Assembly (NCBI RefSeq): GCF_003334335.1
Contig: NZ_QOWQ01000050.1
Length of the DNA stretch: 28,028 nucleotides
Source: Escherichia coli
Lineage (GTDB): Bacteria; Pseudomonadota; Gammaproteobacteria; Enterobacterales; Enterobacteriaceae
Reading direction: 5' to 3' (one strand)
In this document: in pieces, positions 21,841 through 21,863 of the stretch
Layout of the letters: each line of letters opens with the position of its first letter
Numbering within the stretch: the stretch's first letter is position 1
Program-made: the position numbers and the translations under genes
The notes under the pieces: model-generated
Database searches by the model: none
What the model was told of the DNA's origin: nothing
The model's input: only the letters and a program-made list of their open reading frames with translations

Positions 21841-21863
21841 AGTAAGCGTCGTCTCAGCACCGT
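21841..21863 (+). mobile_element. solo IS66-family terminal-repeat-like remnant
   Basis: agtaagcgtc-gtctc-agcaccgt has the same block spacing as the inverted repeat of the IS66 copy at 27738 (ggtaagcgtc-aacgg-agcaccgt). No adjacent transposase frame. Confidence 0.35.

Follow-up and report, generated by a model that had tools for sequence, protein, structure and literature searches.

The insertion sequence (IS) closest to the feature described here is ISEc22, a catalogued member of the IS66 family (NCBI 'IS66-like element ISEc22 family'), which in its intact form is 2,455 bp long, has tnpA starting at nucleotide (nt) 82, and is flanked by 8-bp target duplications (for example CATCATAC, AAACATCA, and ACTTAAAA) that lie flush with its GTAAGCG...CGCTTAC termini, the right end reading ...GCACGCTTAC. 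The second family that bears on the locus is IS3, two members of which, IS1397 and ISKpn1, target palindromic units (PMC1525189). Here we describe a stretch of 28,028 nt from Escherichia coli (contig NZ_QOWQ01000050.1, assembly GCF_003334335.1), referred to below as the window, in which a 51-nt stump of the ISEc22 left end stands in the spacer between iutA and iha, 230 bp downstream of iutA. The stump is the inert relic of one ISEc22 insertion. Its outer edge is a true transposition joint, and its inner edge is most likely a joint made by the end of an IS3-family element, not a random deletion point and not a crossover between two IS66-family copies.

The identity and limits of the relic follow from its comparison with intact copies. 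In a similarity search with the iutA-to-iha spacer, positions 21842–21892 recurred in some two thousand E. coli records at 98–100% identity, and each case examined was the left terminus of an annotated ISEc22, matched from its first base and followed by tnpA, tnpB, and tnpC. Nucleotides 1–48 are exact, nt 49 is G where most ISEc22 copies have A, and nt 50–51 match (50/51); at least one ISEc22 copy (H271) agrees at all 51 positions, and a metagenome variant of the junction (L048) has the usual A at nt 49. The stump opens with the 5'-GTAAGCG of IS66-family terminal repeats and consists of the terminal inverted repeat and subterminal untranslated sequence; with tnpA starting only at nt 82, untranslated end sequence is all that 51 nt can hold. 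The remaining 2.4 kb or so of the element, comprising tnpA, tnpB, tnpC, and the right repeat, is gone. No ISEc22 sequence past nt 51 occurs in the window, nor does the ISEc22 right repeat (GTAAGCGTGCAGCAAGAACCG...) in inverted orientation, and there is no tnpA-tnpB-tnpC set beyond nt 51, so that the feature is a relic and not an element. Directly left of nt 1 stands CCTTACAA, the expected 8-bp target site, whose partner at a right ISEc22 end is missing; the only other occurrences of CCTTACAA in the window (8532 and 18330) are unrelated to any IS end. A preference of ISEc22 for this flank was considered and rejected, the flanks of other ISEc22 copies being unrelated to it.

A preliminary description of the locus, which reported a solo IS66-like terminal repeat, was right in what it observed and half right in how it interpreted it. 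The two blocks that it noticed, GTAAGCGTC and AGCACCGT at a spacing of 5 nt, are indeed present both at 21842–21863 (GTAAGCGTC-GTCTC-AGCACCGT) and at 27739–27760 (GTAAGCGTC-AACGG-AGCACCGT), with the small correction that its start at 21841 took in one flanking base (A). It saw part of a likeness that spans 51 nt. That the place held a former IS66-family insertion is borne out by the solo repeat with element nt 1 lying directly against the iutA 3' flank, and that no transposase gene follows is also borne out, none of the downstream open reading frames being IS66-like. The kinship with IS66 therefore stands, with a different relative in the leading role: the source is ISEc22, and the copy at 27739 to which the repeat had been compared is of ISEc43 type. 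The same description had named a chance match of a 22-mer as the outcome that would undo the observation. When the window was scanned for the 17 specified bases with at most three mismatches, five sites were found against 0.03 expected from dinucleotide shuffles, and all five are ends of IS66-family elements (56–77 and 2681–2702 on the minus strand, 168–189 on the plus strand, and those at 21842 and 27739). The shortness of the stretch first noticed is the only point that speaks for chance; given 51 nt at 98–100% identity to an exact ISEc22 terminus, copies of which are present in about 1,900 genomes, and a shuffled background of 0.03 even for loose matches, we regard a fortuitous resemblance as practically negligible.

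The junction between the stump and its right-hand neighbor is fixed in one island lineage. It was found in 751 of the 5,426 complete E. coli genomes, CFT073 included, and when the iutA flank was added to the query, 741 genomes still covered at least 80% of it, so that no other genomic context is evident. The flank was also scanned in metagenome and species-representative sets. Among 47 metagenome contigs that bear it, 40 have the junction, six have an IS629-like end instead, and in one ISEc22 continues; seven of the 40 carry an extra 8-bp deletion within the stump and several others carry point changes, a pattern that a neutral relic would be expected to show.

How the rest of ISEc22 was lost had been explained in the preliminary description by homologous recombination of an intact element with another IS66-family copy, leaving a solo repeat. 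Several IS66-family elements do lie in the window and its surroundings, and this gives the proposal its initial appeal. A crossover between two copies, however, leaves a whole hybrid copy and not a 51-nt stump, the window holds no other ISEc22, and its other IS66-family copies are 64–69% identical, too divergent for homologous recombination. The two ISEc43-type copies share GTAAGCGT(C/A) and (A/C)(G/C)C(A/G)CCGT at the same spacing in their repeats; they agree with ISEc22 at 18 of 22 positions in the repeat and at 64–69% in the body, and neither copy gave rise to the relic or is a plausible partner for homologous recombination. Furthermore, the stump ends at a junction with an IS3-family sequence. 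The occupied state, which the preliminary description had suggested looking for, was sought with a composite query in which 248 nt of the flank and stump run directly into ISEc22 nt 49–298, and no record covered at least 80% of it in the 5,426 complete E. coli genomes or in 72,556 plasmids. The one observation on the other side is metagenome contig OKSX01001900.1 (L026), in which ISEc22 runs past nt 51 at the exact site. Over its first 1 kb or so the element there is about 100% ISEc22-type, after which it switches to a second variant and then to a third, at 100% identity each; this three-way IS66 mosaic has no CCTTACAA duplication and is followed by an IncF RepFIB backbone, and we rejected it as proof of an occupied site. 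It is probably a chimeric metagenome assembly in which the assembler walked through IS repeats. The anatomy of the locus thus largely refutes loss through recombination between IS66-family copies, which we hold to be very improbable.

The evidence at the inner edge points to a different family. Colinearity with the iha-upstream module of O157:H7 and O104:H4 sets in at 21892, where the window reads TGATCTGCGCCC, the tip of an IS3-family right terminal repeat, the final T of the stump being common to both. The 12 nt are those that open the right repeat of an intact IS3-family element (L069 2501–3915), which has repeats TGATCTGCGCCCC... and TGAAGTGCGCCCC... and a 4–5 bp duplication and whose site is the loop of a subterminal hairpin in the left end of an ISEc43-like element, a short way upstream of TAGTGGACACC. 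JE86, ESY001, and O157 likewise have this tip immediately beside IS66-family left ends, and next to an ISEc43-like left end it occurs in both orientations. In ESY001 it meets nt 70 of a further type, IS66-Y', and continues into the remaining part of the repeat and the transposase gene's 3' end; in O157 and O104 it stands at that same IS66-Y' position. In intact IS66-Y' relatives TAGTGGGAACC comes directly after nt 70, and ISEc22 reads TAGTGGACACC from nt 51. The motif TAGTGG(A/G)(C/A)ACC (TAGTGGNNACC) lies next to the tip in three IS66-family members, with the tip directly before it in two of them and five bases upstream of it in the ISEc43-like element. An IS66 origin of TGATCTGCGCC, under which the stump would combine the left ends of two IS66 elements, was also considered and was rejected since JE86 and plasmid pCFSAN004179G show this sequence to be an IS3-family terminal repeat. 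The features of the locus are collected in Table 1.

Table 1. Features of the iutA-to-iha spacer and other IS66-family ends in the window.
Feature	Position	Strand	Basis
iutA 3' flank, chromosomal-island type, ending CCTTACAA	21612..21841	.	sequence comparison
ISEc22 (IS66 family) stump, nt 1–51 of left end	21842..21892	+	identity to intact copies
TGATCTGCGCCC, 12-nt IS3-family right terminal repeat tip	21892..21903	+	identity to intact element
Decayed IS3-family (IS150-group) orfB fragment with frameshifts and stops	21896..22294	+	DNA and profile match
Crossover interval from CFT073-type (left) to O157-type iha-upstream sequence (right)	22276..22285	.	informative sites
ISEc43-type IS66-family right end, comparator of the preliminary description, running off the window	27739..28028	-	about 69% identical to ISEc22 3' end
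Complete ISEc43-like IS66-family element (tnpA, tnpB, tnpC), ends 168–189 and 2681–2702	168..2702	-	
Left end of another IS66-family element (type labelled IS66-Y), body left of the window	1..77	-	

On Citrobacter and Salmonella plasmids, intact elements of 1,447 nt have at nt 886–1262 a counterpart of the orfB fragment that adjoins the tip, with 86–87% identity; ISKpn1 is 74.6% identical to the fragment at the DNA level. Its translation matches the IS3 transposase profile NF033516 of NCBIfam over profile positions 202–329 (E=4e-14) with 52.7 bits, which, the sequence being a fragment, falls short of the full-length cut-off of 160 bits, and shows homology to the DDE transposase OrfB with the typical motifs APNILSRNF..NEKW. 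Neither the window, CFT073, nor O157 retains the other end of the IS3 element, of whose repeats the window shows the 12-nt tip at 21892. We considered the fragment as the product of a simple 5' deletion with random endpoints, and this is weakened by its starting at the same nucleotide in two different IS66 contexts.

Targeting of palindromes, as described for IS1397 and ISKpn1, fits the positions of the intact relatives in hairpin loops, one in a Citrobacter terminator-like structure and one in the ISEc43-like left end. The present case differs in that the targets are IS66-family left ends and not repetitive extragenic palindromic (REP) or bacterial interspersed mosaic element (BIME) units, and in that the window holds a dead fragment. 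The name IS1397 was considered for the intact IS3-family element and is not established. The intact element and its remnants were seen in three IS66-family left ends (L069 2501–3915; L067 2519; L014 3070; L006 3001), the site being a subterminal hairpin loop in two of these three members. On a Citrobacter braakii plasmid (L071 1100–1130 and 2550–2590) an intact IS3-family relative with a TAA duplication occupies the loop of a terminator-like palindrome, AAAAGCCTCAGA...TCTGAGGCTTTTTTT. Scans of viral contigs for the IS3 ends returned one redundant locus only.

Based on these comparisons, we put forward the following sequence of events, whose order we infer. ISEc22, or an ISEc22 that had already been interrupted, would have transposed into the spacer downstream of iutA, its left terminal repeat landing directly against ...CCTTACAA, and the sequence beyond nt 51 would have been lost later. 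The inner edge, at 21891/21892, would be a joint formed through transposition by the end of an ISKpn1-related IS3-family element (the TGATCTGCGCCCC... repeat) at the motif named above. Later rearrangements, among them homologous recombination within the IS3 fragment that linked the aerobactin and iha segments, would then have removed the rest of ISEc22 and the greater part of the IS3 element. Taken as one reading, an inert ISEc22 relic with an inner edge made by an IS3-family end and the rest lost in rearrangements is the account that we think probable, with room for doubt.

Several observations weigh against it. The right part of ISEc22 and the far IS3 end are both missing, so no target duplication confirms either insertion, and ISEc22 has no clear hairpin around nt 51, in contrast to the left ends of the ISEc43-like and IS66-Y elements. 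The IS3 repeat is down to 12 nt, and from nt 5 of this 12-mer on the sequence is already internal orfB of a different IS3 relative; only the first four nucleotides (TGAT) are not also accounted for by orfB homology, and a tip that runs into the orfB of another relative in this way makes the joint composite. Microhomology (CTGCGCCC) may have shaped it. The window/CFT073-type and O157-type fragments share three frameshifting indels relative to intact relatives, so that both E. coli fragment types derive from one already-dead copy, and a simple independent insertion fails to explain how one decayed fragment came to sit on two different IS66-family left ends. The candidates that remain are a defective unit with this tip at its end that was moved in trans, microhomology-mediated recombination, and coincidence. 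Lastly, in loci of the Shiga toxin-producing E. coli (STEC) type an IS629-like end lies no more than 1 nt from this flank position, which may reflect a local hot spot or a history of greater complexity.

Two of these candidates can be spelled out. According to the first, one IS targets another: an ISKpn1-related element would prefer the subterminal hairpin/TAGTGGNNACC of at least three IS66-family left ends, and a defective derivative, reduced to the 12-nt repeat tip fused to internal orfB, would have been moved in trans between two different IS66-family hosts. We advance this tentatively and would not expect it to hold. According to the second, which we likewise think unlikely while taking it seriously, the inner joint arose without a transposase by illegitimate, microhomology-mediated deletion or recombination between an intact ISEc22 and an O157-type junction, that is, an IS66-Y' left end followed by TGATCTGCGCCC and the IS3 fragment, with loss of ISEc22 from nt 52 to its end and of the first 70 nt of the other element. 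Such an origin would account well for the finding that O157 and O104 carry the same IS3 fragment, from the same first nucleotide, after 70 nt of a different IS66-family left end, and for the single decayed ancestor that the common frameshifts imply; a short similarity between ISEc22 nt 48–55 (AATAGTGG) and the O157 junction (AATAAGTGA) is also available. The predicted product of the crossover, however, is GAGAGAATA(A)GTGATCTG, and the observed sequence is GAGAG(G/A)ATGATCTG, 3–4 nt shorter. In addition, the right endpoint would need to have hit an older junction exactly by chance, and the two left ends are only about 55–70% alike.

The joint between the aerobactin and iha modules lies elsewhere. 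Judged by the positions that distinguish CFT073 from O157, the window agrees with CFT073 from 21926 to about 22276, with an exception at 22239, and with O157 from 22285 on; identity to O157 is 84–93% over 21892–22290 and 99–100% beyond. CFT073 itself matches to about 22295–22310, beyond which it has a further part of the IS3 gene and sat. This switch of sites and the jump in identity put the crossover that joined the modules at the IS3 fragment's 3' end, away from the IS66-family stump. The iha-upstream module, 99–100% identical to that of O157:H7, contains a full-length match to Esr41, a small RNA of enterohemorrhagic E. coli (Rfam RF02676; 23007–23080, minus strand; 108.6 bits against a gathering score of 102).

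The iutA 3' flank has features of its own. A perfect hairpin with 16-bp arms, terminator-like, lies just past the iutA stop (21638–21679), and an exact 16-nt tandem duplication, TTGTTTACAGCCAGTA x2, at 21669–21700 overlaps its 3' arm. Aerobactin loci on plasmids have this flank no further than about 21671. A plasmid of Hafnia paralvei (L011 2501–2587) carries an intergenic homologue of 21754–21841, 78% identical, that runs past the insertion point, and by sequence likeness this suggests that the flank may be of plasmid origin. Reconstruction of the empty site was attempted and given up, the plasmid loci stopping at about 21671 and the Hafnia homologue being too distant to serve as the original E. 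coli sequence. In STEC-type genomes the flank ends at most 1 nt from the same position, and what comes next is an IS629-like terminal repeat (TGAACCGCCCCGGG) that an ISEc43-like element in turn interrupts; such loci were seen in L007 (5216–5480) and L012 and in the metagenome loci L019, L027, L031, L038, L041, and L043. In the window, the sialic-acid, aerobactin, and iha segment lies between the ISEc43-like copies at 168–2702 and 27739–28028, both on the minus strand, a layout like that of a composite transposon, and the right-hand copy is inserted in a fragment of another IS66-family tnpC (about 27337–27738).

The stump has no detected function: a promoter scan found no sigma-70-like promoter in 21550–22450, the hairpin of the iutA terminator is the one structure nearby, a scan against Rfam gave no match in the stump, and the annotation by PGAP leaves the iutA-to-iha spacer empty. 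It is a routine, unannotated 51-nt scar, conserved in a large island lineage of extraintestinal pathogenic E. coli, and it matters little alone. Its value lies in what it marks. The stump junction is a clean lineage marker among the complete E. coli genomes, and with the crossover beside it, it helps to separate the modules of the virulence island, in which aerobactin, the stump, and the IS3 fragment are CFT073-type and iha with Esr41 is O157-type. The repeated occurrence of an IS3-family element in IS66-family left ends could, if confirmed, be of interest to transposon specialists.
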